Notes under the pieces: generated by a model
Database searches by the model: none
The model's input: the letters and a program-made list of their open reading frames with translations, nothing else
Told to the model about the DNA's origin: nothing
Position numbers and translations under genes: made by a program
Part shown: positions 5,143 to 54,947 of the stretch, piece after piece
Numbering within the stretch: the first letter of the stretch is position 1
Layout: each line of letters opens with the position of its first letter
Assembly (NCBI GenBank): GCA_020635905.1
Contig: JACJYV010000004.1
Span: forward strand, 243,142 to 307,141
Origin: Bacteroidia bacterium
GTDB lineage: Bacteria; Bacteroidota; Bacteroidia; J057; JADKCL01
DNA: 64,000 nucleotides
Direction of reading: 5' to 3'

Positions 5143-5256
5143 AAAATAGCCGTCAGCGATCAGCGTTCAGCCTAAACAGGAACTGGAAGATACTCACCCA
5201 AAATGGATCAGAATCCACAACGCAACCGTAAACCGTAAACCGTAAACTGGCTAAAA
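5143..5256. repeat. heptanucleotide-phased intergenic tract (R1)
   Basis: Fills the gap between convergent stops at 5142 and 5257. Parses as aaaatag ccgtcag cgatcag cgttcag cctaaac ... acgcaac cgtaaac cgtaaac cgtaaac tggctaa. Confidence 0.8.
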
Positions 5257-5874
5257 CTACTTAAAAAGCCCAAAAAGCTCACCTTTCACGCGGTTAACAA
5301 TGATGCCGAGGTGTTCGGGATTGTCGCGGAAATTGAGTTCGTCGATCACAACTTCGATCTTTTTGCCGAGGTTGTAACTTTCGTACCAGGCTTCGTAGCG
5401 CTCATTGAGGCGGCGCAGGTAGTCGAGACGGATGGAATCTTCGTATTCGCGGCCACGCTGTTGAATCTGATCCACCAGACTCGCAATAGAACCACGCAGG
5501 TAAATCAGCAAATCAGGAGGCTCAACCAGCCCATTGACCGTTTCAAACAGCGCACGGTAGGTTTCGTAGTCGCGTTTGGCCATGAGGCCCATGGCATGCA
5601 GGTTGGGGGCGAAGATTTGCGCATCTTCATAGATGGTCCGGTCCTGAATGATGTTGATTCCGTGGGTACGGATATCGATGATCTTGCGGAAACGGGTATT
5701 CAGAAAGTGAACCTGCAGGTTGAAAGACCAACGCTGCATATCCGAGTAGAAATCAAACAGATAGGGATTGGTTTCGGCGTCTTCGTAATGCGGTTCAAAT
5801 CCAAGATATTTGGACAATTGAGTGGTAAGGGTGGTTTTACCTGAGCCGATGTTTCCCGCTATGGCGATGTGCAT
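5257..5874 (-). CDS. deoxynucleoside kinase
   Basis: 205 aa with the P-loop AGNIGSGKTT at the N-terminus and dNK-family body motifs (ERSIYED-like RTIYEDAQIF, C-terminal LID region). Confidence 0.85.
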   Translation of the reverse strand: MHIAIAGNIGSGKTTLTTQLSKYLGFEPHYEDAETNPYLFDFYSDMQRWSFNLQVHFLNTRFRKIIDIRTHGINIIQDRTIYEDAQIFAPNLHAMGLMAKRDYETYRALFETVNGLVEPPDLLIYLRGSIASLVDQIQQRGREYEDSIRLDYLRRLNERYEAWYESYNLGKKIEVVIDELNFRDNPEHLGIIVNRVKGELFGLFK

Positions 5875-5889
5875 TGGTCGAAATTATAG

Positions 5890-6882: not shown

Positions 6883-6907
6883 GATTGGGGTTTCGTTTTT
6901 GGGGACG

Positions 6908-6915
6908 CAAATATA
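6908..6915 (-). promoter_or_regulatory. Bacteroidota-type -7 promoter box (TATATTTG) for trpS
   Basis: Perfect TAnnTTTG on the minus strand, 25 nt upstream of ATG 6882. Confidence 0.55.
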
Positions 6916-7062
6916 AATCTTATTTGGGGACAAACCTAAGTTAGAGGGGCGATTGTCGGGGTTGGATAAATTTTCTTTTCGAAATCGGAATAAATAATTA
7001 AATTTTGCCTGAAATATTTATAATTTCACACTATTGTTTAATAATTCTGATCACACGCCATT

Positions 7063-7918: not shown

Positions 7919-7934
7919 TCACTGATGGAACAAT

Positions 7935-7969
7935 AAAAAAGGCGTCCTCTTGCGGGGACGCCTTTTTTT
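7935..7969. terminator. bidirectional intrinsic terminator
   Basis: A-run, GGCGTCC(TC)/(GG)GGACGCC stem, then T7-run. Lies between the convergent gene ends at 7918 and 7987. Confidence 0.75.
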
Positions 7970-7986
7970 ATGCCTTGATTTTCCGG

Positions 7987-14963: not shown

Positions 14964-14998
14964 GTTCGCAGCTAGAAGCCTGTTGCTCGCAGCTAAAA
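14964..14998. repeat. short heptanucleotide-phased tract
   Basis: Parses as gttcgca gctagaa gcctgtt gctcgca gctaaaa. Same GCTNNNN word family as the tracts at 27008, 33936 and 54772. Confidence 0.5.
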
Positions 14999-15056
14999 AA
15001 AATCCCCCAGCCGAAGCCAGGGAACTGAAATTGAACTTCCTGAAATATTTTTTTAA

Positions 15057-15117
15057 GGGGTAAGTGAGCATTTCTGAAACAAGTTCAACGCTGATATTCA
15101 AAGGTTTAGGGGTTCCC
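15057..15117 (+). mobile_element. MITE-like element, truncated/degenerate copy 4 (right half)
   Basis: ggggtaagtgagcatttctgaaacaagttcaacgctgatattcaaaggtttaggggttccc aligns to the right half of the full copies. No matching left end and no flanking duplication. Confidence 0.55.
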
Positions 15118-15705
15118 AATTGCAGCGATGAAATCCATTTGCAGAGCCGGAATATCCATGGCAATGGCTTCAGCTTCCGTCAGTTGAGCAATGGAAGGAT
15201 TTGCCCCGGGCAAAATCTGGGTCAGCATCAGCGCCCCGTTTTGCCGCTCGATCAGGTCATATCTGACCACCACTTCCCGACCCGTAATGGTGCCCCGAAA
15301 CAGGGCCGACCACATGCCAGGGGCCGTTTCCCGCACTTCCTGATCCGACCAGAGCAGGGTGCCATCTCCACCCGACTGGGTGAAATCGAGGTCTTTCAAC
15401 TCCTCTTTCATGGTTTTCTCATCCAGCGCTACCAGCAGGATGAGCCCGCCCGTCTTTTCATTTCTGAAAAGCCCTTCAGCTTCTCCCAGGGAGGCCTGCT
15501 CCAAAAACCAGATGGGATTCGACTGAATTCCCATGCAATATTGCCAGCCCTGAAGCCAGCTTGCTTCAGGTTGATAATGCGCAGGCAGCACGATCCTTTG
15601 CTCCATGCTTTGTCCAGATTGAGCCTGAGACTGAGCGAAAAGATTTCCCGTGTTGCACAGGGCGAGCACCATCAGGAGGGCGGAGATTTGGGCGAGTCGT
15701 TTCAT
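15106..15705 (-). CDS. hypothetical secreted protein
   Basis: Track ORF trimmed to ATG 15705 (MKRLAQISALLMVLALCNTGNLFAQ signal peptide). The last three codons and the stop lie inside the truncated MITE. Confidence 0.5.
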   Translation of the reverse strand: MKRLAQISALLMVLALCNTGNLFAQSQAQSGQSMEQRIVLPAHYQPEASWLQGWQYCMGIQSNPIWFLEQASLGEAEGLFRNEKTGGLILLVALDEKTMKEELKDLDFTQSGGDGTLLWSDQEVRETAPGMWSALFRGTITGREVVVRYDLIERQNGALMLTQILPGANPSIAQLTEAEAIAMDIPALQMDFIAAIGNP

Positions 15706-15969
15706 GGGATTATTTTTTTGTTGTATGGGTTTGTTGAACAATTCAAAGATCGCAGCCCCGGCCTGCAAAAATTAACAACCCCCGGCGCATTAATATCAAC
15801 TTTGATGCAATTTTAGGCGGATTTGAGCCATTTTCAACCAAAATGTAAGCTGTGTTTCAGATCCTGTCAATCCAGTTTCCCGGTCAGCATGCATCAGAAA
15901 GGGTTAGTTATGAATAATCTCACCTGCAAAGCGGTCTCTCTCAGGAAGCGGGCCCATGGCCCGTTTACA

Positions 15970-17899: not shown

Positions 17900-19345
17900 A
17901 TGTTCGGAATTGAAATCATTGAAGTAGCCCTCGGCCTGGCCCTGGTATATTTTGCCGTGAGCACCATTTGCTCGGGCATTTACGAAGCTTTTGCCCAGCT
18001 GACCGACAAACGCTCCAAGCACCTGGAAGACGGTATTCGCAAGTTTCTTAACGACGAAGCCACTTCCTCCAACCCCAGCGGACTGGCCACTGCACTCTAT
18101 TCAAATCCCGAAATCTGGTCGCGCCTGGAAGGAAAAATCGGCAAAAAAGACTGGATTGAAGCCTCTAAGTTCTCGGGGGTTCTATTCGATATTCTCGTGC
18201 CCAAAGACGAGGCCCAGGAATCAGATTTTGTGAAAAATCTGAAGTCAGAGATCAACAAAACCATGACTGATCCTGGTATTCAGAAAACGCTCAACCGCAT
18301 TGTGGGCGTGTTGGAAACCCCGATTGTGGGCACCCTAAAGGGCATTCTGGAGGATTATTACAAGGATTCGCCTCTCGCGGGCCAAATCATGGAGATTTTT
18401 CAGGGCATTGATCCTGCCACCCAGTGCAAAGACTGTTACGACGAATTGCTGGGCCGACTGCGCGCCCTGAATCTGCCTGATGGAGAGTTTGCTGCCGCAA
18501 AGGAAACCCTGGATGCCCTGGTGCGGGAAGGGGATAAGTTTGCCAATGTGAAAGAATTGATTCGCCTGCGCTTCTCCAATGACAAAATCGAGGAAGCGGC
18601 CCTCAATCTGGTGAGCAAATGGGAGGAAAGCGAAAAAATCATCAAATTCCGTACCCGGCTCGCCGACCGCCTGCGCGACAATAAAATACAAAAGACCCTG
18701 CTGGCCAAGATTGACGCCGCCGAGGGCAAAATCGCTGATGTACGCAAAACCATGGAATCCGTCTTTGATGAGGCCATGGGAGATGTGGGCAAATGGTATC
18801 GTGCCAATGTGCGCATGGTGATCCTGGTCCTCTCGGTGATCATCACTGTGGGTTTCAACGTAGATACCCTCGAACTGGGGCGTGAACTCTGGAACGACAA
18901 CGACCTGCGGGCCGCAACCCTGGTCACGGTGCAGCAGGTGGTGGAGAAAAAATCTGAGGTTTGGTCCCCCAAGCAAGACCCCAATGCAGTGGAAACTGCC
19001 CCTGGGGTGGAAGTAGCAGAGGCCGATACCAGTGGCGGTCAAACTGTTTCCGAACTTCCCGAACCTACTCCCGCGGACACCAGTGGAAAATCCATTGGTG
19101 AAATTCTCCAGGAAGCACAGGTGGCCGTGGATAAAATGGAAACCCTGCCCGTCGGCTGGAATTTTAATGGCAATTTCTGGGACCTCAACTTCAGCAAAGG
19201 TAAAACGGGCAATAAACTCTGGGCTTCCATTCTGCTGAAAATTCTGGGCTTTGTAATGACCATCGCCGCAGCGTCTCTTGGTGCACCCTTCTGGTATAAT
19301 CTGCTCAAAAGCCTCACCAGCCTGAAGGACAAGATAGCCAAGTAA
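17900..19345 (+). CDS. hypothetical membrane protein
   Basis: 481 aa. One N-terminal TM, a long charged helical middle, then two further TM segments (MVILVLSVIITVGF; ILLKILGFVMTIAAASLGAPFWY). No motif I can name. Confidence 0.5.
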   Translation: MFGIEIIEVALGLALVYFAVSTICSGIYEAFAQLTDKRSKHLEDGIRKFLNDEATSSNPSGLATALYSNPEIWSRLEGKIGKKDWIEASKFSGVLFDILVPKDEAQESDFVKNLKSEINKTMTDPGIQKTLNRIVGVLETPIVGTLKGILEDYYKDSPLAGQIMEIFQGIDPATQCKDCYDELLGRLRALNLPDGEFAAAKETLDALVREGDKFANVKELIRLRFSNDKIEEAALNLVSKWEESEKIIKFRTRLADRLRDNKIQKTLLAKIDAAEGKIADVRKTMESVFDEAMGDVGKWYRANVRMVILVLSVIITVGFNVDTLELGRELWNDNDLRAATLVTVQQVVEKKSEVWSPKQDPNAVETAPGVEVAEADTSGGQTVSELPEPTPADTSGKSIGEILQEAQVAVDKMETLPVGWNFNGNFWDLNFSKGKTGNKLWASILLKILGFVMTIAAASLGAPFWYNLLKSLTSLKDKIAK

Positions 19346-19490
19346 TCAATTAACAATTAGCAGAGAGCAATGAACGGAAATCAATTGTCAATTAGCAGAG
19401 AGCAATGAACCTTTGCTTCTTCTCTTACATCTGATATCTAACTGTCTAAAATCTAATTGTCTGACATCTAAAATCTAATTCTCTAAAATC
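19346..19490. repeat. heptanucleotide-phased intergenic tract (R2) with 35-bp higher-order repeat
   Basis: Runs stop-to-stop between convergent genes. tcaatta acaatta gcagaga gcaatga acggaaa is repeated 35 nt later; then come tctaaaa/tctaatt-type units. Confidence 0.8.
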
Positions 19491-25924: not shown

Positions 25925-25997
25925 GCTTCGGGCTGCCCCAGGCTTCAAGCCAATTGAGGAACTTACAACTCACAACTTACAACTAATCCCCAACCAA
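25925..25997. repeat. heptanucleotide-phased intergenic tract (R3)
   Basis: Runs stop-to-stop. Parses as gcttcgg gctgccc caggctt caagcca attgagg aacttac aactcac aacttac aactaat. Confidence 0.75.
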
Positions 25998-26864: not shown

Positions 26865-27037
26865 GTTCAGATTTTAGATTTTAGATGGATAGATTTTAGA
26901 GGTTAGTCTTGAGTCCTTAGTCCTTAGAGGTAAGATAAAAGACAGTTCAAGTTTCGCCACTCGCCACTCGCCACTCGCCACTTGAAACTCTGAACTTACA
27001 ACCACCCGCTCGCAGCTCGAAGCCAGCAGCTTGAAGC
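26865..27037. repeat. heptanucleotide-phased intergenic tract (R4)
   Basis: 23 consecutive units between the galU start and the MIOX stop. 11 end in AG, 7 in AC (including TCGCCAC x4) and 5 in GC. Only 3 units are not exactly 7 nt. Confidence 0.85.
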
Positions 27038-33935: not shown

Positions 33936-34021
33936 GTTGCGAGCCTTTAGCTGCGAGCTGCAAGCAAAATTCTCGCCACTCGAAACTCGCCACTCGAACC
34001 TCACTACTCGAACCTCGCTAC
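33936..34021. repeat. heptanucleotide-phased intergenic tract (R5)
   Basis: 12 units in perfect phase with no indel, running stop-to-stop: gttgcga gccttta gctgcga gctgcaa gcaaaat tctcgcc actcgaa actcgcc actcgaa cctcact actcgaa cctcgct. Confidence 0.85.
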
Positions 34022-35389: not shown

Positions 35390-35509
35390 AACGTTTTACG
35401 GTTTACGGTTTACGGTTTACGGTTTACGGTTCTATGTTGTAAGTTCCCACAAGGTGGTGCCTTTGGCATGAGTTGTAAGTTGATAGGTAATTTCTCTAAT
35501 CTCTAATCT
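35390..35509. repeat. heptanucleotide-phased intergenic tract (R6)
   Basis: TACGGTT x5 (35397-35431), then gtaagtt / tgtaagt units, then tctaatc tctaatc. Runs from the radA start codon to the upstream gene's stop. Confidence 0.85.
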
Positions 35510-39842: not shown

Positions 39843-39931
39843 TTTTTCAGATAGGAGATTTTCAGAGGCTAGTCCTTAGTCGTTAGTCCTTAGTCGTTAG
39901 TCGTTGGGGATGGCTCGTCGCTCGCAACTCG
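39843..39931. repeat. heptanucleotide-phased intergenic tract (R7)
   Basis: Parses as agtcctt agtcgtt agtcctt agtcgtt agtcgtt ggggatg gctcgtc gctcgca. Runs from the aroC start codon to the MlaD-like stop. Confidence 0.8.
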
Positions 39932-40906
39932 TTACTCCTCCTCATACAATTTCTGTTTGCCGCTGAGGGTCATGGAAACGTGGATACGTTTGGTTCGCAG
40001 ATGCTCCAGGGTTTTGTTCAGGTTTTTGACGGTTTCGTCCAGATCACTGGCAAATTTTTCGTCATAAAGCACTTTTCCCATGAGGGTATTTTTGTCCTTG
40101 CTTTGCGCCAGCAACTCTTCCACAGAAACCATCAGTCCTTCTGTTTGTTTGAGCATTTCAGCCAGACTTCCCATCAGGCTATCTGCTTTGGGTAGGGAAT
40201 TTTCCTTTACCCCCTGACTGATCGATCGCACGTCCTCCATGGTCAGTTTGGCTTCGTCGGCCAGGTCGTTCATTTTCACCAATGCGCTGTCCACCTTGGT
40301 AACCAGCCTTTTTTGTTCCACCTGACCCAGAATGCGATTGAGTTTGTCAGCTGCGCCTGAAAGGTCAGAAACCGTGCCGGCCAGTTCGCCCGTATTGATT
40401 TCGCGGCTCAGTTCGCCCACCGCGCGGGTTACGTCCTTCACACTTTGAAAAAGGCTGTCCATGGCGCCTGGCGAAATTCCCTGCATCATGCCGCCAAACT
40501 GAGAAAAAGCTGTGCTGAAATCCATGGCCGTATTTCCCCTGATACGGGCGCCAGGATTGAGCTTATTGCCCTGATTTCCAGGATATAGTTCAATCATTTT
40601 ACCCCCAGTCAGTTCTTTGATGCGGATTTCTGCGCTGGCATTTTCAAACAGACTTACCTCTTCATTGAGGGCAATTTCCACCAACGCGCCATCCTGTGCC
40701 AGGGAAATGGACTTCACTTTGCCAGATGGGAGCCCGAAAACATTGATTTTATCATTGGTTTTGAGGCCGGCCACATTGTCGAACAGAATGGTATAGGTCT
40801 GGGCTGATTCCGCAAAAAAATGGATGCCCTTTCCCCAGGCAATGAACAGATAGAGGGCGAGGATACCGCCAAGGACGGTCATACCTATTTTTGTTTCCCG
40901 TTTCAA
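39932..40906 (-). CDS. MlaD/MCE-family protein
   Basis: 324 aa. N-terminal KRETKIGMTVLGGILAL anchor, MCE beta-barrel region (GLKTNDKINVFGLPSGKV) and a long helical C-terminus. TTG start 1 nt after the upstream stop. Confidence 0.75.
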   Translation of the reverse strand: MKRETKIGMTVLGGILALYLFIAWGKGIHFFAESAQTYTILFDNVAGLKTNDKINVFGLPSGKVKSISLAQDGALVEIALNEEVSLFENASAEIRIKELTGGKMIELYPGNQGNKLNPGARIRGNTAMDFSTAFSQFGGMMQGISPGAMDSLFQSVKDVTRAVGELSREINTGELAGTVSDLSGAADKLNRILGQVEQKRLVTKVDSALVKMNDLADEAKLTMEDVRSISQGVKENSLPKADSLMGSLAEMLKQTEGLMVSVEELLAQSKDKNTLMGKVLYDEKFASDLDETVKNLNKTLEHLRTKRIHVSMTLSGKQKLYEEE

Positions 40907-42786: not shown

Positions 42787-42797
42787 TTCAGCCAGGG

Positions 42798-44175: not shown

Positions 44176-44252
44176 AGGTAGCGGTCAGCTTTTAGCAGTC
44201 AGCGGTCAGCGGTCAGCAATCAGCAATCAGCAATCAGCAGTCAGCGTTCAGG
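44176..44252. repeat. heptanucleotide-phased tract (R8)
   Basis: 11 in-phase units starting at the base after the stop: aggtagc ggtcagc ttttagc agtcagc ggtcagc ggtcagc aatcagc aatcagc aatcagc agtcagc gttcagg. Confidence 0.85.
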
Positions 44253-44353
44253 CATCACCCCAATTAATGTTTCTTACTATCTGGAAGACATCAATTTGCA
44301 ATCCTGATTTATCCCCCTAATTTTACATCGTTCAATAATTTCGCAAATAACTT

Positions 44354-44935
44354 ATGGCAGTATTGGTTGGCAAAAAGGCGCCTGCATTTGTGGAAACGGC
44401 GGTGGTAAATGGGGGAGAGGTTGACACAAATTTCACCCTTTCGCAGTTTGAAGGGAGGAAATACGTGCTGTTTTTCTTCTATCCTTTGGATTTTACTTCT
44501 GTTTGCAACTCAGAATTGGTGGCTTTTCAGCAAAGTCTGTCTGACTTTGAAGTCCGTGATGTACAGGTGGTGGGCTGCTCCGTGGATTCGCATTATTCTC
44601 ACCAGGCATGGCTGAAAATGCCGCTGGCTCAGGGGGGAATCCAGGGGATTACTTATCCTTTGGTGGCCGATTTCAGCAAGTCCATTGCAAATAATTATGG
44701 TGTGCTGGCCGGGGACTGGGATTATAACGAGCAGGGCGAACTGGCTTTTGAGGGTAAACCCATGGCTTACAGAGGGTCGTTTTTGATCGATCTGGAGGGG
44801 ATTGTGCGTCACCAGGTGGTGAATGATCTGCCCCTCGGGCGCAGCGTGGGGGAGGCCCTGCGTATGGTGGATGCTTTGCAGCATTTCGACCAAAATGGGG
44901 AAGATTGCCCGGCCAACTGGAAAAGGGAGATTTAA
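44354..44935 (+). CDS. 2-Cys peroxiredoxin (AhpC/Prx1 type)
   Basis: FFFYPLDFTSVCNSE carries the peroxidatic Cys. C-terminal GEDCPANW carries the resolving Cys. Confidence 0.9.
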   Translation: MAVLVGKKAPAFVETAVVNGGEVDTNFTLSQFEGRKYVLFFFYPLDFTSVCNSELVAFQQSLSDFEVRDVQVVGCSVDSHYSHQAWLKMPLAQGGIQGITYPLVADFSKSIANNYGVLAGDWDYNEQGELAFEGKPMAYRGSFLIDLEGIVRHQVVNDLPLGRSVGEALRMVDALQHFDQNGEDCPANWKREI

Positions 44936-45170
44936 TACGACTTTCAGATTATCAGCAGGAATTAGACCAGTATTTTGGATGCATTCTACAAGTGATTGAA
45001 AATGAATGATATCCATGCTGCCAATAATCACCATGATTTATTTTGTGGACCCTGGTTGAAAAAATTGGCCATTAAATTTTGATGGATAGAACCTGATTGC
45101 TTATCTTTAATTCGATTTTCCGAACTAAACTAAACTATTTTTTAAATCTAAACTTCAAGGGTGGAAACAC

Positions 45171-45560
45171 ATGGCATATAATCTGATCATGCTTGTGGAC
45201 GAAGATGAGATTGACAACATCATCAATCAAAAGATCATCGAGTCCAACAGCTTTGCTGATGAAATATTGGTTTACCAAACGGGTCAGGAGGCCCTCGAAT
45301 ACCTTTCAAGTAACTCCAAAGACAATGCTGCATTGCCCGATTTGATTTTTCTGGACATCAACATGCCCATCATGGACGGGTTTCAGTTTCTGGAAGAATT
45401 TGAGAAAATGCCCGATTCCGTGAAAACCAAGTGTAAAATCATCATGCTTTCCTCGTCTATCAGTCCACGGGACATCGACCGGGCGGCAAGTAATAAGTAT
45501 GTGATTAAGTATCTGAACAAGCCACTGAATTCCAGATACCTGCAAGCCATCAACGTTTAA
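45171..45560 (+). CDS. stand-alone response regulator receiver domain
   Basis: 129 aa. Acidic pair DEDE, phospho-acceptor context LIFLDINMP, and conserved S..K (MLSSS...KPL). Confidence 0.85.
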   Translation: MAYNLIMLVDEDEIDNIINQKIIESNSFADEILVYQTGQEALEYLSSNSKDNAALPDLIFLDINMPIMDGFQFLEEFEKMPDSVKTKCKIIMLSSSISPRDIDRAASNKYVIKYLNKPLNSRYLQAINV

Positions 45561-45577
45561 TAATAATCAACAGAAAT

Positions 45578-45610
45578 AAAAAACCCGGCAGTGATCCTGC
45601 CGGGTTTTTC
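45578..45610. terminator. bidirectional intrinsic terminator
   Basis: A6, CCCGGCAG tgatc CTGCCGGG, T5. Lies between the convergent ends at 45560 and 45638. Confidence 0.8.
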
Positions 45611-45637
45611 TTTGCGTAGATTTTTCAATCTCCGGGT

Positions 45638-47080
45638 TTACATTCCTTCCGTGAAAGTCTCAAACGACAGTTTGAGATAGGGGAGAATGGCGTTGGTACC
45701 CTTATTGCTTTCCTCAAATTCCTCCAGCAGTTTTTTGAGTTGCTGCAGTTTCTTGGTGGTCCGTCCGCCCTGGCGGTTGGTCAGGATTTTTAGGAAAATA
45801 CGTCCATTTTCGTAATTCGAGAAGGTGGACTTTTTCAACTGCCTTTGCAGACTGAGGATCAATTGGTTGGCCAGGTCACTTTCGCCCAGCAGCACGTAGG
45901 AAAGAGCCAGGAACATTTTGACTTCCACATCCACATGCGGGTTTTTGCGCAGGCTCACCTCGTTGCGCACCCGGTAAAGGATACGGGAGGAATTTTCAAA
46001 ATCCTTCTTATAAAAGGAGGCGTAAGCCTTGAAAAGGTTGAAATTGATGTAGGTAACCAGACGGTAGGAATCAATTTCGATTTTATCAATGTACTCAGCG
46101 ATATCCTGTTGCAGGAGGTCGAGTGTGCCATATTCCTGGTGACGCAGCAGTTTGAAAAACAGGATGGAAGAGCAATCCATGCCAAAGTTGAAGCCCTTGA
46201 GCAGGTCTTCAATCTTATAGTCCAAAAGTTCGAAGTAGATCTGCTCGCGGTCGCGGTCTCCGTTTCTGCGGTAGTAGGTATAGCGCAAAAAGTCGAAAAT
46301 CAGGTTGAGGTTTTTGAAAAGAATGTCGTCAGGATTTTTTTCCAGGATTTCGAAAGACTTCTCAAACAACTCATTATCAGATTCCATGATCACGCTCATG
46401 CGGTCGGGCAGTTCCACAAACTGACTGGAAAAGAGGTGGATGATGGCCATGGAAATAAACAGCCTCTGCGAGGTGTAGAGGTTGTTTTGGTTGTGAATTT
46501 TCTCAACCGTGCGAATCAACTCGTTATAGTCGCGTTCACGGCGGGCCAGGTAATAGCGGTCGTAAATGCGGAAAAAAGTCATCACGGTCTCCATGGCCTT
46601 GTCATTGGCCAGGTAAAAGGCGACCGCCTGATTATACTTCTGGTCGTACTCCACCCGATGGTTGTCATCGTGGCTGTGCAGCATTTTCAGCGCCCTGTAC
46701 ACCACCATCAGCACGAGGGAGTTGTCCTCGTCCAGCATGGTTTTTTCCAGCCTTTTGAGGGTGGTAACGGCGATTTCGCGGGGACTTTGAAAGATCAGGT
46801 CATATACTTTGAACACCTTCTGGATGGCCTCCATTTTGGGGTCTCCCAAACGGTTCAACAAAAAATCCTCAACTTTCTGGTTGAGGCGTGATTTGAGTAC
46901 ATAAAAGGCGGATGCAGAAATTTCCTGTTTTTCCAGGAAGTCCTCGACGGGATTATCGCTTTCCCGAATGGTTTTCAGGAAGAGCGCGCTCTTCTCAGCT
47001 TTGTTTGATGTAAGGTTTTGGTAAATATCAAGAAACTCCTCGTCAGAAAGTTGTTTGATGATCGTGTACAGTGCATCCAT
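45638..47080 (-). CDS. hypothetical protein, all-helical (TPR-like?)
   Basis: 480-aa ORF with good coding appearance. Rich in K/E/L/Y/F, with no TM segment or signal peptide. No motif I can name. Confidence 0.5.
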   Translation of the reverse strand: MDALYTIIKQLSDEEFLDIYQNLTSNKAEKSALFLKTIRESDNPVEDFLEKQEISASAFYVLKSRLNQKVEDFLLNRLGDPKMEAIQKVFKVYDLIFQSPREIAVTTLKRLEKTMLDEDNSLVLMVVYRALKMLHSHDDNHRVEYDQKYNQAVAFYLANDKAMETVMTFFRIYDRYYLARRERDYNELIRTVEKIHNQNNLYTSQRLFISMAIIHLFSSQFVELPDRMSVIMESDNELFEKSFEILEKNPDDILFKNLNLIFDFLRYTYYRRNGDRDREQIYFELLDYKIEDLLKGFNFGMDCSSILFFKLLRHQEYGTLDLLQQDIAEYIDKIEIDSYRLVTYINFNLFKAYASFYKKDFENSSRILYRVRNEVSLRKNPHVDVEVKMFLALSYVLLGESDLANQLILSLQRQLKKSTFSNYENGRIFLKILTNRQGGRTTKKLQQLKKLLEEFEESNKGTNAILPYLKLSFETFTEGM

Positions 47081-47286
47081 ATATCTTGAACCGATTTCCT
47101 AATTATCCGTACTTCGTTACTTTTCCAAATTATTGCATCTGAAATGCTACATGAATCAGACACTAATTAAACTATAATTTTTCACCAATCGTAGCCTCCG
47201 AATTACTATGTAAGAATTTTATTTCTTTTGTTATTTAAAATATATGGGGGGATATGCATATTTGTATAGGATTGAAGTTAAGATAC

Positions 47287-47334
47287 TTTAGTTTAGTTAG
47301 TTTAGTTGGTTTGTTAGTTTAGTTAGTTGGTTGG
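47287..47334. repeat. low-complexity TTTAG/TTAG/TTGG tract
   Basis: tttagtttagttagtttagttggtttgttagtttagttagttggttgg. Less regular than the heptad tracts. Confidence 0.6.
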
Positions 47335-47358
47335 CCTGTTCTTTTCGAAGTTCAGGCC
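47333..47358. other. hairpin abutting the mazG stop
   Basis: GGCCTG..CTTttcgAAG..CAGGCC, followed by T8 on the plus strand. On the minus strand (mazG sense) there is no U-tract. Confidence 0.3.
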
Positions 47359-47365
47359 TCTTTTT

Positions 47366-48154
47366 TTAGCGGGCATTTTTCTTGGCCTGCTCCCAGTACA
47401 CATCCATCTCTTTCAGGTTCAAATCCTTCAGATTTTTCCCCTCCTTTTCAATGGCTTCCTCAATGAATTCAAAACGCTTTTTGAATTTGTGGTTGGTGCG
47501 GTTGAGGGCGTCGTCGGGATTGATGCCAATGAAGCGGGCATAATTCACAAGGGAAAAAAGAATATCCCCAAATTCGTCTTCCAGCTTTTCCTTTGCGGCA
47601 CCCTTTTCGGCTTCTTCCTTGAATTCGCCCAGTTCTTCCTGCACCTTCAGCCACACATCCTGAGGATTATCCCAATCAAAACCCACATTCCTCACTTTCT
47701 CCTGAATGCGCAGGGCCTTGATCAGGGAAGGCATGCTGTTGGGCACTCCATCGAGCACCCGTTTCTTCTTCTGATTCTTCTTTTCGGCCATTTTGATCTC
47801 CTCCCAATTACGCAAAACCTTGTCTGTGGAGTCGGCCTGCACATCGCCGTAGATATGAGGGTGACGGCGAATCAGCTTTTCTGTGAGGGTGGTGATCATC
47901 TCTTCCGTGGAAAATTTGTTTTCTTCCTCCCCAATGCGGCTGTAAAACAAGACATGCAGGAGAATATCCCCCAATTCCACCTTCATTTCGTCCCAGTCGT
48001 CGTCCAGGATAGAATCTGAAAGCTCGTAAACCTCTTCAATGGTGAGGTGACGGAGACTTTCGCGGGTTTGCTCCTTGTCCCAGGGGCATTTTTCCCTGAG
48101 TTCGTGGACCACTTCAAAAAGACGGGAGAAGGCAGGAAGGAGCTGTTCATTCAT
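47366..48154 (-). CDS. mazG: nucleoside triphosphate pyrophosphohydrolase MazG
   Basis: 262 aa with two MazG repeats: EEVYEL...E.GD.L and LQEELGEFKEE...EFGDILFSLVN. Confidence 0.9.
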   Translation of the reverse strand: MNEQLLPAFSRLFEVVHELREKCPWDKEQTRESLRHLTIEEVYELSDSILDDDWDEMKVELGDILLHVLFYSRIGEEENKFSTEEMITTLTEKLIRRHPHIYGDVQADSTDKVLRNWEEIKMAEKKNQKKKRVLDGVPNSMPSLIKALRIQEKVRNVGFDWDNPQDVWLKVQEELGEFKEEAEKGAAKEKLEDEFGDILFSLVNYARFIGINPDDALNRTNHKFKKRFEFIEEAIEKEGKNLKDLNLKEMDVYWEQAKKNAR

Positions 48155-48181: not shown

Positions 48182-48564
48182 TAAAAAAAAAGCCCCTGGT
48201 TAAGGATTCCCGGGGCATGTCTGAAAGTGATTTGGTGAAAAAAAGGAAGGTACTACTATGAAAAAGGCGTGTTTGTAAACTGAAAAAAAGTGGTTCGAAA
48301 TAACTTCTAAAGTGGAGGTTCGGGTTCAATTTGGGTAAAATTTTTCTTCATACCCTTGCTTTTGGCCTGAACGGTCAGTTTTGGGGTGACAATGGAAATA
48401 ATCATTTCATGAAAGGAAATATTACTCAACAGAAATCGTTAGCAATGTCACAACCACGCTTGAATTTCCCCGTTTAAGATTTTCCCGCATTATTTTCCCG
48501 CATTAAATTTCGCGCAATTTGTTTTCTGACTCCTGAAAACTGCTTTCCTTCATTGAATTATTCA

Positions 48565-51500
48565 ATGAAAAGGAGGAAATTCAACTTCAAATACTACGAA
48601 ATGTCACACCTCAGCCGTCTCTTTCTCACTGTTTTAGGAGCAGCCACCCTGCTGATTCTTATTTCCGCATTTCAACCCAAACCCCACAAACACAAGCCCA
48701 TGCTTACTTTTCAGCCCGGGGACACCTACGAAGACCTTTGGAAAAAGGTGGATTCCCTCAAAAATCAGGGCTTGCCCGAGTCGGCCCTGGAAGTGGTCAA
48801 CCTGATTTACGGCAAGGCCAGCCAGGATCACAACGACGCCCAGGTGGCCAAATCTTTGATTCACGTGATGCTTTTTACCGCGGCGAAGGAGGAGGAATCC
48901 ATTGTGAAAAATATTGGTCGCATGGAGGAAGAGATCAAGAAGGCACATTTTCCCCTGAAACCCGTGCTGCAATCCATGCTGGCTGAAAGCTATTATTCCT
49001 ATTACAGCAATAATTACTGGCGATTTCAAAATCGCTCAGAGACGGTCAGTTTTGACAATCTGGACATCCGTACCTGGGACCTGACCAAGGTCAGGAATGA
49101 GATTTACGCCCTGCACCAGGCCGCTTTGGAAAACAGGGACAGCCTCAAAAGAACCCCTCTTTCCCTTTTCAACGACATTCTCCAGTTGCAAACTGGCAGC
49201 CAGGATTACCGCGGCACCCTGTTCGATTTTCTGGCTCACCGCGCCATTTCCTTCTATTCCAACGACTTATTGCAGGTGAATCAGCCTGCCTGGAAATTTG
49301 ATCTGGACCAGGAAGAGGTGTTTTTGCCCGCCAAACAGTTTGCCAAACTGCAAATAACCACCCGCGACACTGGCTCCAATAAGTATAATGCCTTTTTGCT
49401 GTATCAGGATCTGGTTGATTTCCATTTAGGAGACACGGATCCCATGGCCCTGATTGATCTGGAGCGAAATCGCCTGACCTGGATGCGGTCCCATTCCGTG
49501 CTGGGTTATGCAGACAGTCTTTACCTGCAGGCTCTGGTCAGTCTGGAGAAAACCTATCCCAATCATCCTGAGATTGCCCAGGTGGGCTACGACATTGCCC
49601 GTCATTTAAACGAGCAGGGTGGCCAGTACACCCCAGGTTCTGAGCACCCCAACCGTTGGAAAATCCGCGATGCCTGGCAAAAATGTGCCGAGGTAATCAA
49701 AACCTGGAAAGCAGAAAATCCCGGGGTAATCAATTGTAAATCCCTGCAAATCGAGATTGAAACCACTTCCATTTCCGTTACCCATGAGGAGGTAAATCTG
49801 CCCGGTCAACCTTGTCGTGCACTGGTGACCTATGATAATGTGCCCAAATTATACCTGAAACTGGCCCGCCTGGAGCCTCAGCAATGGGACAACCTCAGTA
49901 ATATCTACGACGAGCAAAAGCTGGAAGCCCTCAAAAAACTGCCCGTGGTGAAGGAATGGAGCCAGGATCTGCCATTGGAAGGCGATTACCAGAGCCACCT
50001 GGCCGAGATTGAGATTCCCGGCCTGGAACTGGGTGAGTACGTTTTGCTGGCTTCCTCCTCCAATGAATTCGTTTTCAATGAGCACCAGATTTCCTTTTCG
50101 CGCATCTGGTATTCCAATCTTTCCTACAGCGCCCGCCTCGACAATAAATACGATATGTCTGTGCTGGTGCAGGACCGCGAATCGGGCGAACCCCTGAAAG
50201 GGGCCAAAGTAAGGCTGCTCAACCGCGAATACGATTACAACAGCCGTTTGTATCGCTTCATTGAAAAGGGGAATTACACCACAGACGATCAGGGTTGGGT
50301 CAAAATTCCTGCTCCATCCTCAGGCAGCCGCTACTTTAATCTGGAAGTGCGCAATGGAAAAGATCGTCTCAGCCTGAACGACAGCTACAGCCAGTATTAT
50401 TCTTCGAATAATTCTCCTCAATCTGTCCTGAGAACCACCTTTTTTATGGATCGCATGATCTATCGCCCGGGGCAGACCATTTATTTCAAAGGTCTGGTGC
50501 TGGAATTCAAGGGCGAAAATGCTTCCCTGAAAACCAATTACAAAACCACGGTTTATTTCATAGATCCCAATTATCAAACTGTTTCCACCCTCGAAGTGAC
50601 CACCAATGAATATGGAACATTCAGTGGCACTTTTACCGCTCCCCTGGGCCAGCTCAACGGGCAGTTTCACCTGCAGGACGGCAACAGTTCCCAGTATTTC
50701 AGGGTGGAAGATTATAAGCGACCCAAATTTGAAGTGAAATTCGAGCCTGTAAAAGGGAGTTTTGCCCTGGGCGGGCTGGTCAAAGTGAAGGGAAATGCCC
50801 TGGCTTACGCGGGTTCTACCATTGACGACGCCAAAGTGGCTTACCGCGTGGTGCGTCAGACCCGTTTTCCTTGGTGCTGGGGCTGGAGATGGTATCCCAG
50901 CACGGCCGACATGGAAATCACTTCAGGAGAGGTGAAAACAGACGCTGCGGGTGATTTTGAAATCGAATTCAATGCCATTCCCGACAAATCTGTGAGCAGC
51001 AAATACCTGCCTCAGTTCAATTTCATCGTCTATGCAGACGTGACGGACGTTTCAGGCGAAACCCATTCCACCCAAACTTACGTGAATGTGGGCTACGTAG
51101 CCCTGAATGCAGATTTGGTCCTGCCTGCCCAACTCGACAAGGACACAAAGTATAAAGGATTTGCCATTCGCACCACCAACCTGAACGGACAGTTCGAGCC
51201 CGCCAAAGGCAGCATTTCCCTGCAAAAACTCCGTTCTCCCAATCGTCTCATGCGCAATCGCCTGTGGGCCAAACCCGACATGTTTGTAATGAAGAAAGAG
51301 GAATTTTTGCAGAAATTTCCCCTGGATATCTACGATAATGAGGCCGATCACACACAATGGGAAGTGGAAAAGGAGGTATTCAAAACCCAGTTTGACACAG
51401 AAAAGGACGACTCACTGCAAATTCCAGGGCTGAAAGACTTTGCCGAAGGCATGTACAAAGCCATCCTGAAAACGAAGGATAAATTCGGCAAGGAAGTGAG

Positions 51501-54500
51501 CAAGGAATACTTTGTGCAGGTCTTTCAGGCCTCAGGTAAGAAGGTGGCTTTGCCCGTCATGAGCACGTTTGTGGACCGCAAAGTGATGGCTGAGCCTGGC
51601 GAAAAAGCTTCCATTCAGGTGGGAACTGCAGCTCAAAAAGTGAAGGTATTGTGCGAGGTGGAATGGAAGGGAACCGTGGTTAAACAGGAATGGATCACCC
51701 TCAACAATGAAAAAATCAATTACGAGCAATTGATTCCTGAAAATTATCGCGGGAACTTCAGTCTGAATTTTCATTTTGTACGCCATGGCCGCCGTGAAAG
51801 CCACCAGCGGGTGGTCACTGTACCCTGGACCAATAAACAGTTGAAACTGGAATTTGAAACCTTCCGCGACAAACTGGAGCCAGGTGCCAAAGAGGAATGG
51901 AAAGTGAAAATTGCAGGCCCGGGCGGTGAAATGGCCGCTGCAGAAATGGTGGCTGCCATGTATGACGCCTCTCTGGACGCATTCGCCCCCAATTATTTCA
52001 GCTTTTCCTGCTATCCCATCCATTATTCCTATCTCAACTGGCAGCACAGCAGTGGATTTTCCAGTGAGACGGGCTCAATTCTGAACCATTATTACAACCG
52101 TGGCATTGGGTACAGAAATCAGTCTTATGATTATCTGAACTGGTTTGGCTATACCCTGGGATACAATTATTTCAACTATCGCTACAAAAGCGTTTCCCGC
52201 AGCGGGGCCGTTTTTGATGCAGAGGGGGATTTTGGTGGTGCTGAATTGGAGGAATCTGGTAATGCTGACGGCTGGGCGGATGATATGGACAAAGATGCAC
52301 CTGCACCCATGGAAAAAAGTGTCCTTTCCAAGGAATCTGCAGAGGACGAGACCCTGTCTGCAGGAGAGAATCGCAGGGAAGTTCAGCAGAAGAATCTGGA
52401 TGGTAAATTGGGAGGAGATCAGGGTGAAGTGAGCATCCGTACCAATCTCAATGAAACAGCCTTTTTCTTCCCTCATTTGCGAACCAATGAAAAAGGGGAA
52501 GTCATTTTCTCCTTTACCATGCCCGAAGCCCTTACCCGCTGGAAATTTTTGGGTTTTGCCCACACCAAAGACCTGAAATACGGTCAGATGAGCGGGGAAA
52601 CCGTCACCCAGAAAGAACTGATGGTGATGCCTCACCGTCCTCGTTTTTTCCGGGAAAATGACCGCATTGTCTTTACTGCAAAAGTTTCAAATCTGGCCGA
52701 AAATGCCCTCAATGGTACTGCCAAACTGGAATTGTACAACGCCCTGAACATGGAGCCCGTGGATGCCATTTTCGGCAACAGCAATTCAAGCCGTAATTTT
52801 TCCGTGGAAAAAGGCCGCAGCACGGGTCTGGAATGGGAACTGACCATTCCAGAAGGGGTTCAGGCCGTGACCTATCGTGTGATTGCCCGTGCGGGCAATC
52901 ATTCAGACGGGGAGGAAGATGCCCTTCCCGTACTCACCAACCGCATGTTGGTGACTGAGGGACTGCCGCTACCCTTGCGCCCCCGACAGAAAAAGGATTT
53001 CACCTTTACCAAACTGGTGGAAAATAAATCCACCACCCTCAAACACCAGAAAATTACTCTGGAATTTACCTCCAATCCTGCCTGGTACGCGGTGCAGGCC
53101 CTGCCTTACCTCATGGAATACCCCTATGAGTGCGCAGAACAGACCTTCTCCCGTTTCTACGCCAACAGTCTGGCTACCCACGTGGCCAATTCTCATCCCC
53201 GCATCAAGCAGGTGTTTGAAAGCTGGAAAAACACAGATAAGGAAGCCCTGCTCTCCAACCTGGAGAAAAATCAGGAACTCAAATACCTCTTGCTGGAGGA
53301 AATGCCCTGGGTGTTGAATGCCCAGGATGAAACTGAGCGCAAGAAAAGGGTGGGACTGCTCTTTGATCTCAATAAAATGGCCTCAGAACTGGAATCAGCG
53401 CTGAAAAAGCTGCAGAAATCCCAGGCCTCCAACGGAGGCTGGCCCTGGTTTCCGGGCATGCCCGACAATCGCTACATCACCCAGCATATTGCAACGGGGC
53501 TTGGGCACCTGGATCACCTCGGGGTAAAAAATGTACGCGAAGACAGCAAAACCTGGACCATGACCCAAAGTGCGCTTCGTTACCTGGATGACCGCATCCG
53601 CGAAGATTATGAATTATTGCTGAGGTATAAGGCAGATTTGAGCAAAAACCACCTGGGACAGCTTCAGTGCCAATATTTGTATGCCCGTTCCTATTTCAAA
53701 GATGTACCTGTGAGTAAGCAAAATCAGGTGGCATTTGATTACTACCTGAAGCAGGCAGAAACCTACTGGCTCGATCAGGGCAAATACACCCAGGGGATGA
53801 TTGCGCTGGCCCTGCATCGTTATGAAAAGCCGCAAACTCCTGCCAAAATCATCAAATCCCTGAAGGAACATTCCCTCAAAAACGAGGAAATGGGCATGTA
53901 CTGGGCCGACAACACAGGCGGCTGGTACTGGTACCAGGCCCCCATAGAAACCCAGGCCCTCCTGATCGAGGCCTTTGATGAGGTCGCCAATGACCAGGCT
54001 TCCGTGGAAGAAATGAAACTCTGGTTGCTCAAACAAAAGCAGACCACTGACTGGAAAACCACCAAGGCCACGGCTGAAGCCTGCTATGCCTTGCTGCTGC
54101 GCGGCACTGATCTGCTGGCTGAATCCAAACTTGCTGAAATCACCATGGGAGGTCAGAAAATCGATCCCACGACCATGGAAGATGTGAAAGTGGAGGCGGG
54201 CACAGGCTATTTCAAAACCTCCTGGACTGGCAAGGAGATCACGCAGGATTTGGGTAAAATTTCGGTGAATAATCCCAATAATGTGGCAGCCTGGGGCGCG
54301 GTTTACTGGCAATATTTCGAGCAACTGGATAAAATTACTTTTGCAGAAACGCCCCTGAAGTTGTCCAAAGAGCTGTTTCGGGAGGAAATGACCGACCGTG
54401 GACCCATTTTGCGTCCGCTGAAAGCGGGCGCAGTGCTCACCCCGGGTGACAAAGTCAAGGTGCGCATTGAGATTCGCACTGACCGCGATCTGGAGTACGT

Positions 54501-54771
54501 GCACCTGAAAGACATGCGGGCCAGCGGATTTGAGCCCATCAACGTGCTGTCACAGTACAAGTACCAGGATGGGCTGGGCTATTATGAAAGCACCCGGGAC
54601 GCGGCCACCAACTTCTTCATCTCCTGGTTGGGAAAAGGGACCTACGTGTTTGAGTACCCCCTGCGGGTCAGCCACAAAGGTGACTTCTCCAACGGCATCA
54701 CCACCATTCAGTGCATGTATGCACCCGAATTCACCGCCCACTCAGAAGGAGTGCGGGTAGTGGTAAAGTAG
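48565..54771 (+). CDS. alpha-2-macroglobulin family protein with thioester motif
   Basis: About 2,068 aa. Repeated MG-type beta domains, the thioester site YPYECAEQT (CAEQ at 53131-53142), and a C-terminal receptor-binding-like domain. The start could be TTG 48553, ATG 48565 or ATG 48601. Confidence 0.9.
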   Translation: MKRRKFNFKYYEMSHLSRLFLTVLGAATLLILISAFQPKPHKHKPMLTFQPGDTYEDLWKKVDSLKNQGLPESALEVVNLIYGKASQDHNDAQVAKSLIHVMLFTAAKEEESIVKNIGRMEEEIKKAHFPLKPVLQSMLAESYYSYYSNNYWRFQNRSETVSFDNLDIRTWDLTKVRNEIYALHQAALENRDSLKRTPLSLFNDILQLQTGSQDYRGTLFDFLAHRAISFYSNDLLQVNQPAWKFDLDQEEVFLPAKQFAKLQITTRDTGSNKYNAFLLYQDLVDFHLGDTDPMALIDLERNRLTWMRSHSVLGYADSLYLQALVSLEKTYPNHPEIAQVGYDIARHLNEQGGQYTPGSEHPNRWKIRDAWQKCAEVIKTWKAENPGVINCKSLQIEIETTSISVTHEEVNLPGQPCRALVTYDNVPKLYLKLARLEPQQWDNLSNIYDEQKLEALKKLPVVKEWSQDLPLEGDYQSHLAEIEIPGLELGEYVLLASSSNEFVFNEHQISFSRIWYSNLSYSARLDNKYDMSVLVQDRESGEPLKGAKVRLLNREYDYNSRLYRFIEKGNYTTDDQGWVKIPAPSSGSRYFNLEVRNGKDRLSLNDSYSQYYSSNNSPQSVLRTTFFMDRMIYRPGQTIYFKGLVLEFKGENASLKTNYKTTVYFIDPNYQTVSTLEVTTNEYGTFSGTFTAPLGQLNGQFHLQDGNSSQYFRVEDYKRPKFEVKFEPVKGSFALGGLVKVKGNALAYAGSTIDDAKVAYRVVRQTRFPWCWGWRWYPSTADMEITSGEVKTDAAGDFEIEFNAIPDKSVSSKYLPQFNFIVYADVTDVSGETHSTQTYVNVGYVALNADLVLPAQLDKDTKYKGFAIRTTNLNGQFEPAKGSISLQKLRSPNRLMRNRLWAKPDMFVMKKEEFLQKFPLDIYDNEADHTQWEVEKEVFKTQFDTEKDDSLQIPGLKDFAEGMYKAILKTKDKFGKEVSKEYFVQVFQASGKKVALPVMSTFVDRKVMAEPGEKASIQVGTAAQKVKVLCEVEWKGTVVKQEWITLNNEKINYEQLIPENYRGNFSLNFHFVRHGRRESHQRVVTVPWTNKQLKLEFETFRDKLEPGAKEEWKVKIAGPGGEMAAAEMVAAMYDASLDAFAPNYFSFSCYPIHYSYLNWQHSSGFSSETGSILNHYYNRGIGYRNQSYDYLNWFGYTLGYNYFNYRYKSVSRSGAVFDAEGDFGGAELEESGNADGWADDMDKDAPAPMEKSVLSKESAEDETLSAGENRREVQQKNLDGKLGGDQGEVSIRTNLNETAFFFPHLRTNEKGEVIFSFTMPEALTRWKFLGFAHTKDLKYGQMSGETVTQKELMVMPHRPRFFRENDRIVFTAKVSNLAENALNGTAKLELYNALNMEPVDAIFGNSNSSRNFSVEKGRSTGLEWELTIPEGVQAVTYRVIARAGNHSDGEEDALPVLTNRMLVTEGLPLPLRPRQKKDFTFTKLVENKSTTLKHQKITLEFTSNPAWYAVQALPYLMEYPYECAEQTFSRFYANSLATHVANSHPRIKQVFESWKNTDKEALLSNLEKNQELKYLLLEEMPWVLNAQDETERKKRVGLLFDLNKMASELESALKKLQKSQASNGGWPWFPGMPDNRYITQHIATGLGHLDHLGVKNVREDSKTWTMTQSALRYLDDRIREDYELLLRYKADLSKNHLGQLQCQYLYARSYFKDVPVSKQNQVAFDYYLKQAETYWLDQGKYTQGMIALALHRYEKPQTPAKIIKSLKEHSLKNEEMGMYWADNTGGWYWYQAPIETQALLIEAFDEVANDQASVEEMKLWLLKQKQTTDWKTTKATAEACYALLLRGTDLLAESKLAEITMGGQKIDPTTMEDVKVEAGTGYFKTSWTGKEITQDLGKISVNNPNNVAAWGAVYWQYFEQLDKITFAETPLKLSKELFREEMTDRGPILRPLKAGAVLTPGDKVKVRIEIRTDRDLEYVHLKDMRASGFEPINVLSQYKYQDGLGYYESTRDAATNFFISWLGKGTYVFEYPLRVSHKGDFSNGITTIQCMYAPEFTAHSEGVRVVVK

Positions 54772-54947
54772 CTGCAAGCTACGAGCTGGGGGCTGCCTGC
54801 TTCGGGCATCTGGCTGGAAGCTATTATCGGCCAGCGGTCAGTTGGCAAAGTAAAGCAAATGGGTTTTGCTAATCCATTCAATACTAAGGACTCAGGACTC
54901 CCGACTAAGGACTATTCTCTAAAATCTGACATCTAAAAATCTAACAT
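54772..54947. repeat. heptanucleotide-phased intergenic tract (R9)
   Basis: Exactly 25 units (24 x 7 nt plus one 8-nt unit = 176 nt) fill the gap from the stop at 54771 to the convergent stop at 54948. 16 units start with CT. Confidence 0.9.

Follow-up and report, generated by a model that had tools for sequence, protein, structure and literature searches.

Nine of the gaps between genes in a 64,000-nt stretch of DNA from an uncultured member of the Bacteroidia (the window; positions 243,142 to 307,141 of contig JACJYV010000004.1, from a metagenome-assembled genome, or MAG) contain arrays of direct repeats whose unit is 7 nt. The best explanation for these tracts, to which we assign a probability of about 0.6, is that they are heptanucleotide simple sequence repeat (SSR) arrays that arose at the level of the DNA, by slippage or unequal recombination in 7-nt register combined with copying between loci, and that they are tolerated at gene junctions. 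The tracts had been singled out by an earlier reading of the letters (here, the original prediction), and among the roles that it proposed, a by-product of slippage is the one that fits best. Coordinates are those of the window unless a locus is named, and tracts are referred to by their first position.

We measured self-match at every lag over ten tracts, namely the nine gaps and a short tract at 14964-14998. Identity at lag 7 ranged from 0.46 to 0.77 and that at adjacent lags from roughly 0.05 to 0.36, with lags 14 and 21 appearing as harmonics. When the window was divided with a greedy map of open reading frames (ORFs) into 6.2 kb of intergenic and 57.8 kb of coding DNA, pooled intergenic DNA had a lag-7 identity of 0.313, compared to 0.266 ± 0.0055 in 200 dinucleotide-preserving shuffles (z 8.7); the corresponding z values were 7.9 at lag 14 and 4.5 at lag 21. 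The coding DNA gave no lag-7 signal (0.239) and showed a period-3 pattern alone. Moreover, a maximal-segment scan of the window returned 11 lag-7 segments (542 nt), every one of them intergenic, and between none and two segments for each of lags 4-6 and 8-13. Thus, within the 64 kb, the expected period-7 peak is present above shuffled controls and is confined to intergenic DNA.

Tested gap by gap, the nine gaps of the original prediction gave z values of 4.4 to 10.8 (p ≤ 0.003, the floor with 300 shuffles) and the other 29 gaps of the window gave z values of at most 1.7 each, with no period-7 signal, so that the list proved exactly right. As an independent check, Tandem Repeats Finder (TRF) reported periods of 7, 14, 21 and 35 at the array sites, and period-7 arrays at 14 places. 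The description of the spacers as built almost entirely from 7-nt units was correct as to the periodicity but overstated its extent: strict lag-7 segments cover about half of the 1053 nt of tract, and three of the tracts have aperiodic cores of 47-68 nt. Likewise, the tenth tract does resemble the others at lag 7 (0.50), but weakly, with a gap-level z of only 0.5. The observation that the phase starts right after a stop codon is in part a matter of definition, since the tracts were delimited by the ends of ORFs; at several of them the stop codon is itself part of the periodicity, which reaches 2-6 nt into ORF ends at 27038-27042, 39932-39937, 54770-54771 and 54948-54951. (On one strand or both, most tracts have stops in all three frames, so that an ORF is apt to finish at a tract edge.) The combination of a fixed anchor with drifting positions is real, in that lag-7 matches cluster in certain columns in 8 of 19 sub-arrays (p < 0.05), and super-units of 14 and 21 nt account for part of these anchors. 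Similarity falls from lag 7 to lag 14 to lag 21 in six of the nine array gaps. Note that the genome is unusually rich in such arrays: 9 of the 38 gaps in the window (24%) bear one, compared to 40 of 1184 (3.4%) in the other loci that we analysed (p 9e-6).

Each array gap is mosaic in structure. Beside the stop codon lie AGCTNNN or GCNNNNA, GCNNTCA or CGAGNNN units, and these are followed by GACT-containing (AAGGACT) or AACTTAC units and then by A-rich units (TCTAAAA, AACCGTA) beside the following gene. TRF identified perfect or near-perfect runs of TCGCCAC (4.1 copies, 100% matches), AACCGTA (3.4 copies, 100%) and ACGGTTT (5.9 copies, 97%), and the tracts also contain higher-order repeats whose lengths are exact multiples of 7, namely one of 14 nt at 33972 and another at 39870, one of 21 nt at 44180 and one of 35 nt at 19344; we regard such runs and super-repeats, as well as the fall in similarity over lags 7, 14 and 21, as signs of recent amplification. 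Unit families and one collinear block are, in addition, shared over two to four loci within the 64 kb. AAACCGT runs are common to 5224 and 35391, GTGGCGA units are common to 26954 and 33972, and a composite block of about 58 nt, (AGATTTT)n-AGAG-(TAGTCCT)n, occurs in the tracts at 26865 (26866-26930), 39843 and 54772 (54883-54951), the last copy being inverted on the window. When tested against permutations of the 7-nt units, this block has a p value of 0.003 per pair; the copy at 54772 aligns with scores of 59 and 53.

Comparison with relatives indicates what occupies the same junctions elsewhere. The next-best RadA in the collections is 72% identical to that of the window, the MAG having no close relative there, and exact-protein look-ups with aroC and MIOX, made in search of close strains, returned no match. 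Relatives at 68-72% identity nevertheless keep the gene order MlaD-aroC ... arginase-(DAO)-ABC-radA. In one such locus (L170) the MlaD-aroC, ABC-radA and radA-downstream junctions measure 2, 11 and 2 nt and have no arrays, whereas the same junctions in the window measure 89, 120 and 86 nt and are made of arrays; in another (L084) the ABC and radA genes overlap. The difference between array-free junctions of 2-11 nt and array-filled ones of 86-120 nt argues that the arrays are insertions that themselves made the gaps. A further locus (L085) has an ABC-radA junction of 60 nt with a (CAATTCT)n array, and together with its close counterpart L086 it carries three arrays in 21 kb (L085 370-407, 2607-2637 and 9957-9995).

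Heptamer arrays are also found well beyond these relatives. Two sets of loci, one anchored on galU and the other on RadA, in which the relatives among the matches listed are at most 67% identical, were used as background and not for the comparison of orthologous spacers. The galU-anchored loci, drawn from many phyla (1.26 Mb), contain 27 lag-7 segments, and the RadA-anchored metagenomic loci of Bacteroidota (0.91 Mb) contain 59, compared to 0-22 at other lags. Exact tandem units in 2.29 Mb fall into 137 canonical classes, about 21 of which are shared between loci, which is approximately what chance would give among an estimated 1170 or so classes. (We entertained the idea of a heptamer vocabulary common to distant genomes, with ACTCGCC in L147 and AAGACTC-type units in L120, L123 and L125, and rejected it because such sharing is about what chance predicts.)

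In one metagenomic clade of Bacteroidota, heptamer repeats lie within a gene, in frame in a loop of RadA and directly after the conserved SERQIKMRAERL; the inserts read, for example, SEVGSQKSEVGS and KSEIEHSKSEI. RadA proteins of this clade are 471, 478, 483, 486, 487 and 492 aa long, and three of these lengths (471, 478 and 492) differ by multiples of 7 aa, that is, of 21 nt or three units. The inserts are at L102 485-523, L111 2739-2774, L112 5409-5455, L115 814-847, L119 10425-10469, L123 7626-7705, L106 10466-10506, L124 10432-10468 and L127 10437-10467; the RadA of the window is without that insertion. These in-frame arrays point to an origin for heptamer arrays that is mutational rather than functional, with the expansion apparently acting on DNA wherever it is tolerated.

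The mechanism that we envisage would begin with a short seed at a gene junction, which slipped-strand mispairing or unequal recombination would amplify in steps of 7 nt or of its multiples 14, 21 and 35. Units would diverge by point mutation and mutated units would be re-amplified locally, giving a mosaic of related modules; blocks would be copied between loci, giving the shared units and the collinear composite block at three loci; and arrays would be kept only where a structure-free, stop-rich filler does little harm, namely downstream of genes and between cistrons. We infer such slippage or recombination from the perfect runs, the super-repeats in multiples of 7, the junction expansions and the in-frame RadA inserts, and the arrays would on this account be nearly neutral.

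Several observations weigh against this explanation. Slippage does not explain why the unit should be 7 nt long, and neutral slippage does not explain the positional recurrence of the arrays, their column anchors or the consistent polarity of their modules, with GC-rich anchors at the stop codon and A-rich units toward the next gene. Uniform neutral decay does not predict column anchors in degenerate arrays, and higher-order duplication explains some of these anchors, not all. Moreover, all three arrays of L085 are at junctions that are arrayed in the window too, although their units (AAAGTGA, ACTGCTA and CAATTCT) are unrelated to those found there, a coincidence of position with a rough chance of about 1% that hints at a site-specific propensity or at selection. 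The RadA of L085 is 69% identical to that of the window and 76-77% identical to those of the array-free loci L170, L171 and L082, and the array sites that L085 and the window share would reflect either independent gain or repeated loss. The comparison of orthologous spacers that the original prediction had called for did reveal compact junctions expanded by arrays, but in the only close pair available (L085 and L086, 98.7% identical over 20 kb) there is no 7-nt indel in the arrays, which differ by one cluster of substitutions; gain or loss of units was not observed directly. Finally, the sample of this genome is limited to the 64-kb window.

Some of these same observations would suit a role at the level of the RNA, which we consider possible but doubtful. 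The arrays would then form a structure-free, A-rich intercistronic leader for Shine-Dalgarno (SD)-independent initiation, or would present multivalent sites to a single-strand-binding protein that covers about 7 nt (of the cold-shock domain [CSD], S1 or RNA-recognition motif [RRM] type), and would thereby affect translational coupling or mRNA stability. As had been claimed, arrays adjoin the starts of galU, radA and aroC, for which the family models begin at residues 2, 1 and 8; their last units are A-rich, and L085, a distant genome, likewise has arrays at the same junctions, including those upstream of radA and aroC. The anchors recur at a period of 7, and there is no folding excess on either strand of any of the nine gaps (minimum free energy [MFE] z -1.6 to +1.9), which bears out the low self-complementarity that had been noted. 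In the literature, binding of S1, Csp or CsrA has been proposed for TAACTGA repeats located just upstream of start codons, and CspB binds heptamers (PMC4679880); for the short tandemly repeated repetitive (STRR) sequences of cyanobacteria, an effect on transcript stability or translational coupling has been suggested where they lie between cistrons (PMC2670836). Nevertheless, no start codon follows in the five gaps that are convergent, the AACCGTA family is found in either orientation with respect to the gene closest to it (at 5224 and 35391), and the units vary so widely within and between genomes, with exact sharing near chance, that no single binding motif emerges. Array-free relatives function with junctions of 2-11 nt, and the in-frame RadA arrays indicate a mutational origin. 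A more specific proposal, which we regard as rather unlikely, is that in some SD-less Bacteroidota the tracts represent a polar element of gene junctions, modular in build, in which GC-anchored units beside the stop codon give way to GACT-type units and these to A-rich units that precede the following gene. The 3' end of MlaD, the 5' end of aroC and the ABC-radA junction would have kept this element despite a protein divergence of about 30% and the turnover of its own sequence, and in the transcript it would be a structure-free, multivalent platform on which an RNA-binding protein covering about 7 nt (CSD, S1 or RRM) couples or insulates cistrons.

A function in hairpin-independent termination, in which the arrays would act at 3' ends as unstructured loading zones for Rho or another factor and replace intrinsic terminators, is quite unlikely. 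It is true that the array gaps are all convergent (five) or tail-to-head (four), as the original prediction stated, so that each holds a gene 3' end, and that no array occurs in any of the 10 divergent gaps (Fisher p 0.08). Arrays are present in five of the eight convergent gaps, and two of the array-free ones, 7919-7986 and 45561-45637, contain strong bidirectional hairpins (MFE z -4 to -5). We rejected the 3'-end enrichment as support, however, because it amounts to trends (p 0.08 and 0.07), and the same holds for the mutual exclusivity of arrays and hairpins (p 0.27); genuine hairpin gaps (7919, 45561, 17809 and 15001-15026) are sites separate from array gaps. The gap-type bias in 2.2 Mb of other loci is about 3-fold per kb and is not significant. 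A mild excess of C over G, read in the sense of the upstream gene, accompanies the unstructured arrays in most gaps, but it is weak and inconsistent, with stop-proximal modules such as GTGGCGA being G-rich, and we set this Rho-like skew aside as support. A Rho-utilisation region would be an RNA of about 70-80 nt downstream of a gene, unstructured, rich in C and poor in G and with Rho-dependent 3' ends; the tracts are unstructured, and their skew is mixed. The array at 14964-14998, for its part, lies directly 3' of a classical minus-strand hairpin and T-run (15026-15001). Most telling are the three array-filled gaps that correspond to tight operon junctions in relatives. The -7 box of Bacteroidota is TAnnTTTG, and none is present in the array-filled gaps before galU, radA and aroC; together with the operon junctions of 2-11 nt in relatives, this argues that these genes are probably transcribed through the arrays. 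A terminator role is therefore unlikely in tail-to-head gaps, and the suggestion of termination is weakened to that extent. (A scan for sigma-70-type promoters and terminators was uninformative, with 34 terminator-like sites compared to 28.5 expected.) The nine array gaps contain no palindrome of the repetitive extragenic palindromic (REP) or bacterial interspersed mosaic element (BIME) type and no intrinsic terminator, as judged from the lack of folding excess on both strands, and this together with the period of 7 upholds the view that the tracts do not represent coding sequence in decay and are not hairpin terminators. With Rfam 15 at the gathering score, no array was matched, the sole match in the window being a tRNA-His (GTG) at 55614-55690 on the minus strand. 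Highly improbable, in our view, is an element of the double-stranded DNA, whether one that binds a nucleoid protein or another DNA-binding protein at repeated sites or one that curves the helix, three units making about two helical turns. Several modules (33936, 54772, 27003 and 14964) do have palindromic AGCT anchors at a spacing of 7 bp, and some families occur in both orientations, but no motif is common across families, no phasing of A-tracts at 10-11 bp was seen, and divergent promoter gaps, the usual place of action for DNA-binding regulators, have no arrays. The idea of an assembly or sequencing artefact, already largely refuted, retains hardly any probability. Although the source is a MAG, Logan contigs from two runs, SRR12358676 and SRR12358675, are 100% identical to the window, base for base, over 33273-35424 and 44216-47935, the former interval spanning the entire 33936 tract (identical in the Logan contig L081) and the beginning of the 35390 tract. 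The objection thus fails over the parts covered, and similar arrays are present in many unrelated assemblies and, according to the literature, in finished genomes. The SRR12358675 contig terminates at 44216, inside a (GCAATCA)3 run within the 44176 array, which shows that arrays are hard to assemble and that short-read assemblers break at them; copy numbers in MAGs may be unreliable.

The individual tracts, whose flanking genes (galU, radA, the ABC ATPase, a type IX secretion system [T9SS] plug protein, aroC, MlaD, MIOX, PAP2 and AhpC) are well supported, are as follows. Among the convergent gaps, 5143-5256 (lag-7 identity 0.46, z 4.4; no strand assigned) has GCNNTCA units at 5149-5176 after the stop of the plus-strand gene (TRF array 5153-5171), an aperiodic core at 5172-5223 (lag-7 0.29) and, at 5224-5247, 3.4 copies of AACCGTA (TRF) that adjoin the stop of the minus-strand gene and match the 35390 tract in reverse complement. 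The gap at 19346-19490 (plus strand; lag-7 0.46, z 5.0; TRF periods 35, 7, 15, 22 and 37) contains a duplicated 35-nt block (5 x 7) at 19344-19410 and, at 19423-19495, TCTAAAA-type units with some 8-nt variants, which run up to the stop of the gene for the T9SS plug protein. That at 25925-25997 (plus strand; lag-7 0.50, z 4.5), between the stop of a DUF1801 gene and that of galU, consists of GCTNNNN units and then four copies of AACTTAC (TRF 25960-25984). At 33936-34021 (no strand assigned; lag-7 0.51, lag-14 0.65, z 4.7), between the stops of a gene for a Nudix-type regulator and radA, AGCTNNN units precede 3.7 copies of the 14-nt super-unit CTCGCCACTCGAAC (TRF 33972-34023). The last convergent gap, 54770-54951 (plus strand; lag-7 0.50, z 6.9), follows a gene of 2072 aa and has two strict segments; AGCTNNN units at 54770-54814 are separated by a weakly periodic core at 54815-54882 (lag-7 0.33) from (CTAAGGA)n and then (CTAAAAT)n at 54883-54951.

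The tail-to-head gaps include the tract with the highest z value, 26865-27037 (minus strand; lag-7 0.61, z 10.8), which fills the whole distance from the MIOX stop to the galU start and of whose 173 nt strict segments span 158; on the minus strand, GCTNNNN, GTTNNAA, four copies of GTGGCGA, (CTAAGGA)n and (CTAAAAT)n lead up to the start codon. Between the stop of the ABC ATPase gene and the radA start, 35390-35509 (minus strand; lag-7 0.61, z 8.0) has three copies of TCTCTAA at the ABC end, an aperiodic core with a small hairpin at 35446-35492 (lag-7 0.40), and 5.9 copies of ACGGTTT adjoining the radA start (TRF 35391-35431, 97% matches). The gap between the MlaD stop and the aroC start is likewise wholly filled by 39843-39937 (minus strand; lag-7 0.56, z 6.1; segment 39870-39937), in which CGAGNNN units that include the MlaD stop codon, five units of AAGGACT or AACGACT, and CTGAAAAT-type units precede the start codon on the minus strand. 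Right after the stop of the PAP2 gene, 44176-44252 (plus strand; lag-7 0.77; TRF periods 7, 14 and 21) comprises 11 GCNNTCA units, and the remaining 101 nt to the AhpC start, 44253-44353, are aperiodic (lag-7 0.26) and include a promoter-like TAATTTCG. The short, weak tract at 14964-14998 (minus strand) is of the AGCTNNN type, with an identity of 0.50 at lag 7 and 0.86 at lag 21 and a column heterogeneity p of 0.03.

Beside this last tract, at 15001-15110, a strong minus-strand hairpin with T8 (15026-15001) suggests that the real gene to its right is the minus-strand ORF 15106-15768 and not ORF 15064-15816, which overlaps it on the plus strand; Pfam gave no match for either. Two repeats of other kinds were seen in the window. 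One, at 47287-47332 in the gap 47081-47365, is a TTAG/TTTAG-type repeat of about 10 copies with periods of 4, 5 and 9 and with indels, and so differs in type from the heptamers; the other, at 48479-48516, is a 13-nt direct repeat, ATTTTCCCGCATT, present in 2.7 copies about 40 nt upstream of the 2072-aa ORF (48553-54771), and may be an operator or promoter element. Elsewhere, the convergent gap at L120 11483-11682 combines arrays with a hairpin in an inverted arrangement: 15 copies of GTGAAAG directly after radA, a central hairpin, and then units in reverse complement (CCTTTCA-type). On a contig of low GC content from the Bacteroidota, GTCGGCA units pass into TAACTGA-type units within a mosaic of 172 nt (L095 8751-8922; also 4974-5114), TAACTGA being the unit described by MacGregor 2015 (PMC4679880). 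At L086 3971-5703, an insert that differs from L085 has many REP-like palindromes (GCTTTGCCAACTC...GAGTTGGCAAAGC) around an ORF of about 206 aa, possibly a REP-associated transposase.

How do the arrays compare with known systems? The REP and BIME elements of enterobacteria are mosaic, dispersed extragenic elements found at gene 3' ends and between cistrons, and they are imperfect palindromes that fold. The tracts of the window resemble them in being mosaic and modular and in their location at 3' ends and between cistrons, but consist of direct repeats with no excess of folding. The STRR sequences of filamentous cyanobacteria were reportedly described by Mazel et al. in 1990. These are 7-bp repeats, often between cistrons or after genes and with unknown function (PMC2670836). 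Like the arrays of the window, they are tandem heptamers of a small set of families, scattered across numerous non-coding loci in a single genome; the host here, however, belongs to the Bacteroidota (a cyanobacterial source, which the likeness to STRR first brought to mind, was rejected on account of the T9SS plug protein and of a RadA identical to one from a Bacteroidia MAG) and not to the cyanobacteria, some STRR form hairpins whereas the tracts of the window do not fold, and the STRR1-3 units CCCCAGT, TTGGTCA and CAACAGT have no tandem copy in the window.

Arrays of TAACTGA and other heptamer repeats are known from Beggiatoaceae, 15 cyanobacteria and five Bacteroidetes, and in close relatives of the latter five that keep this gene order the gaps are shorter and free of repeats (PMC4679880), much as in L170 here. 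Gramella forsetii KT0803 and Flexibacter litoralis, both named in that paper, are culturable species rich in arrays. Those arrays, too, are intergenic and often end a few nucleotides before a start codon, whereas most arrays of the window come after stop codons, and TAACTGA occurs once in the window and never in tandem. Heptamers have further been described as the G-rich units GGGAATC and GGGGAYT of Xanthomonas and Nostoc (Rehm 2015, PMC4692102) and as the elements GGACCGG and MTYCTGA of Geobacter metallireducens (PMC2700814). With these the window shares dispersed tandem heptamers that have conserved and variable columns and whose length and sequence differ between related genomes at the same intergenic sites, but its arrays are not G-rich, have no quadruplex potential and use other units.

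The arrays fall within the class of long SSRs of unit length 5-11 (LSSR5-11), of which heptanucleotides are the commonest category, found in free-living bacteria, and for which polymerase slippage was proposed (Mrazek, Guo and Shah 2007, as related in PMC4679880 and PMC4692102). As in that class so related, the 7-nt units of the window run head to tail, exceed the expectation from composition, are mostly intergenic and are patchy across phyla; the degenerate multi-family mosaics, collinear inter-locus blocks and filling of junction gaps do not appear in the survey's description as those two papers convey it. The original prediction could match the tracts to no named class; intergenic heptanucleotide arrays are in fact a described class, and by the criterion of a known satellite family, which the prediction had set itself, the implied novelty falls. 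Such arrays were first noted 35 years ago, in cyanobacteria, and have since been recognised in several phyla; the window, which by itself reveals no new kind of element, adds a clean and dense example from the Bacteroidia. Because related genomes with and without arrays stand side by side, both the driver of 7-nt expansion and the question whether the arrays affect expression become testable. None of the named units of the STRR, TAACTGA, Xanthomonas, Nostoc and Geobacter families is present in tandem in the window, and its arrays thus belong to the known heptanucleotide class rather than to any one of the unit families that have been named within it.

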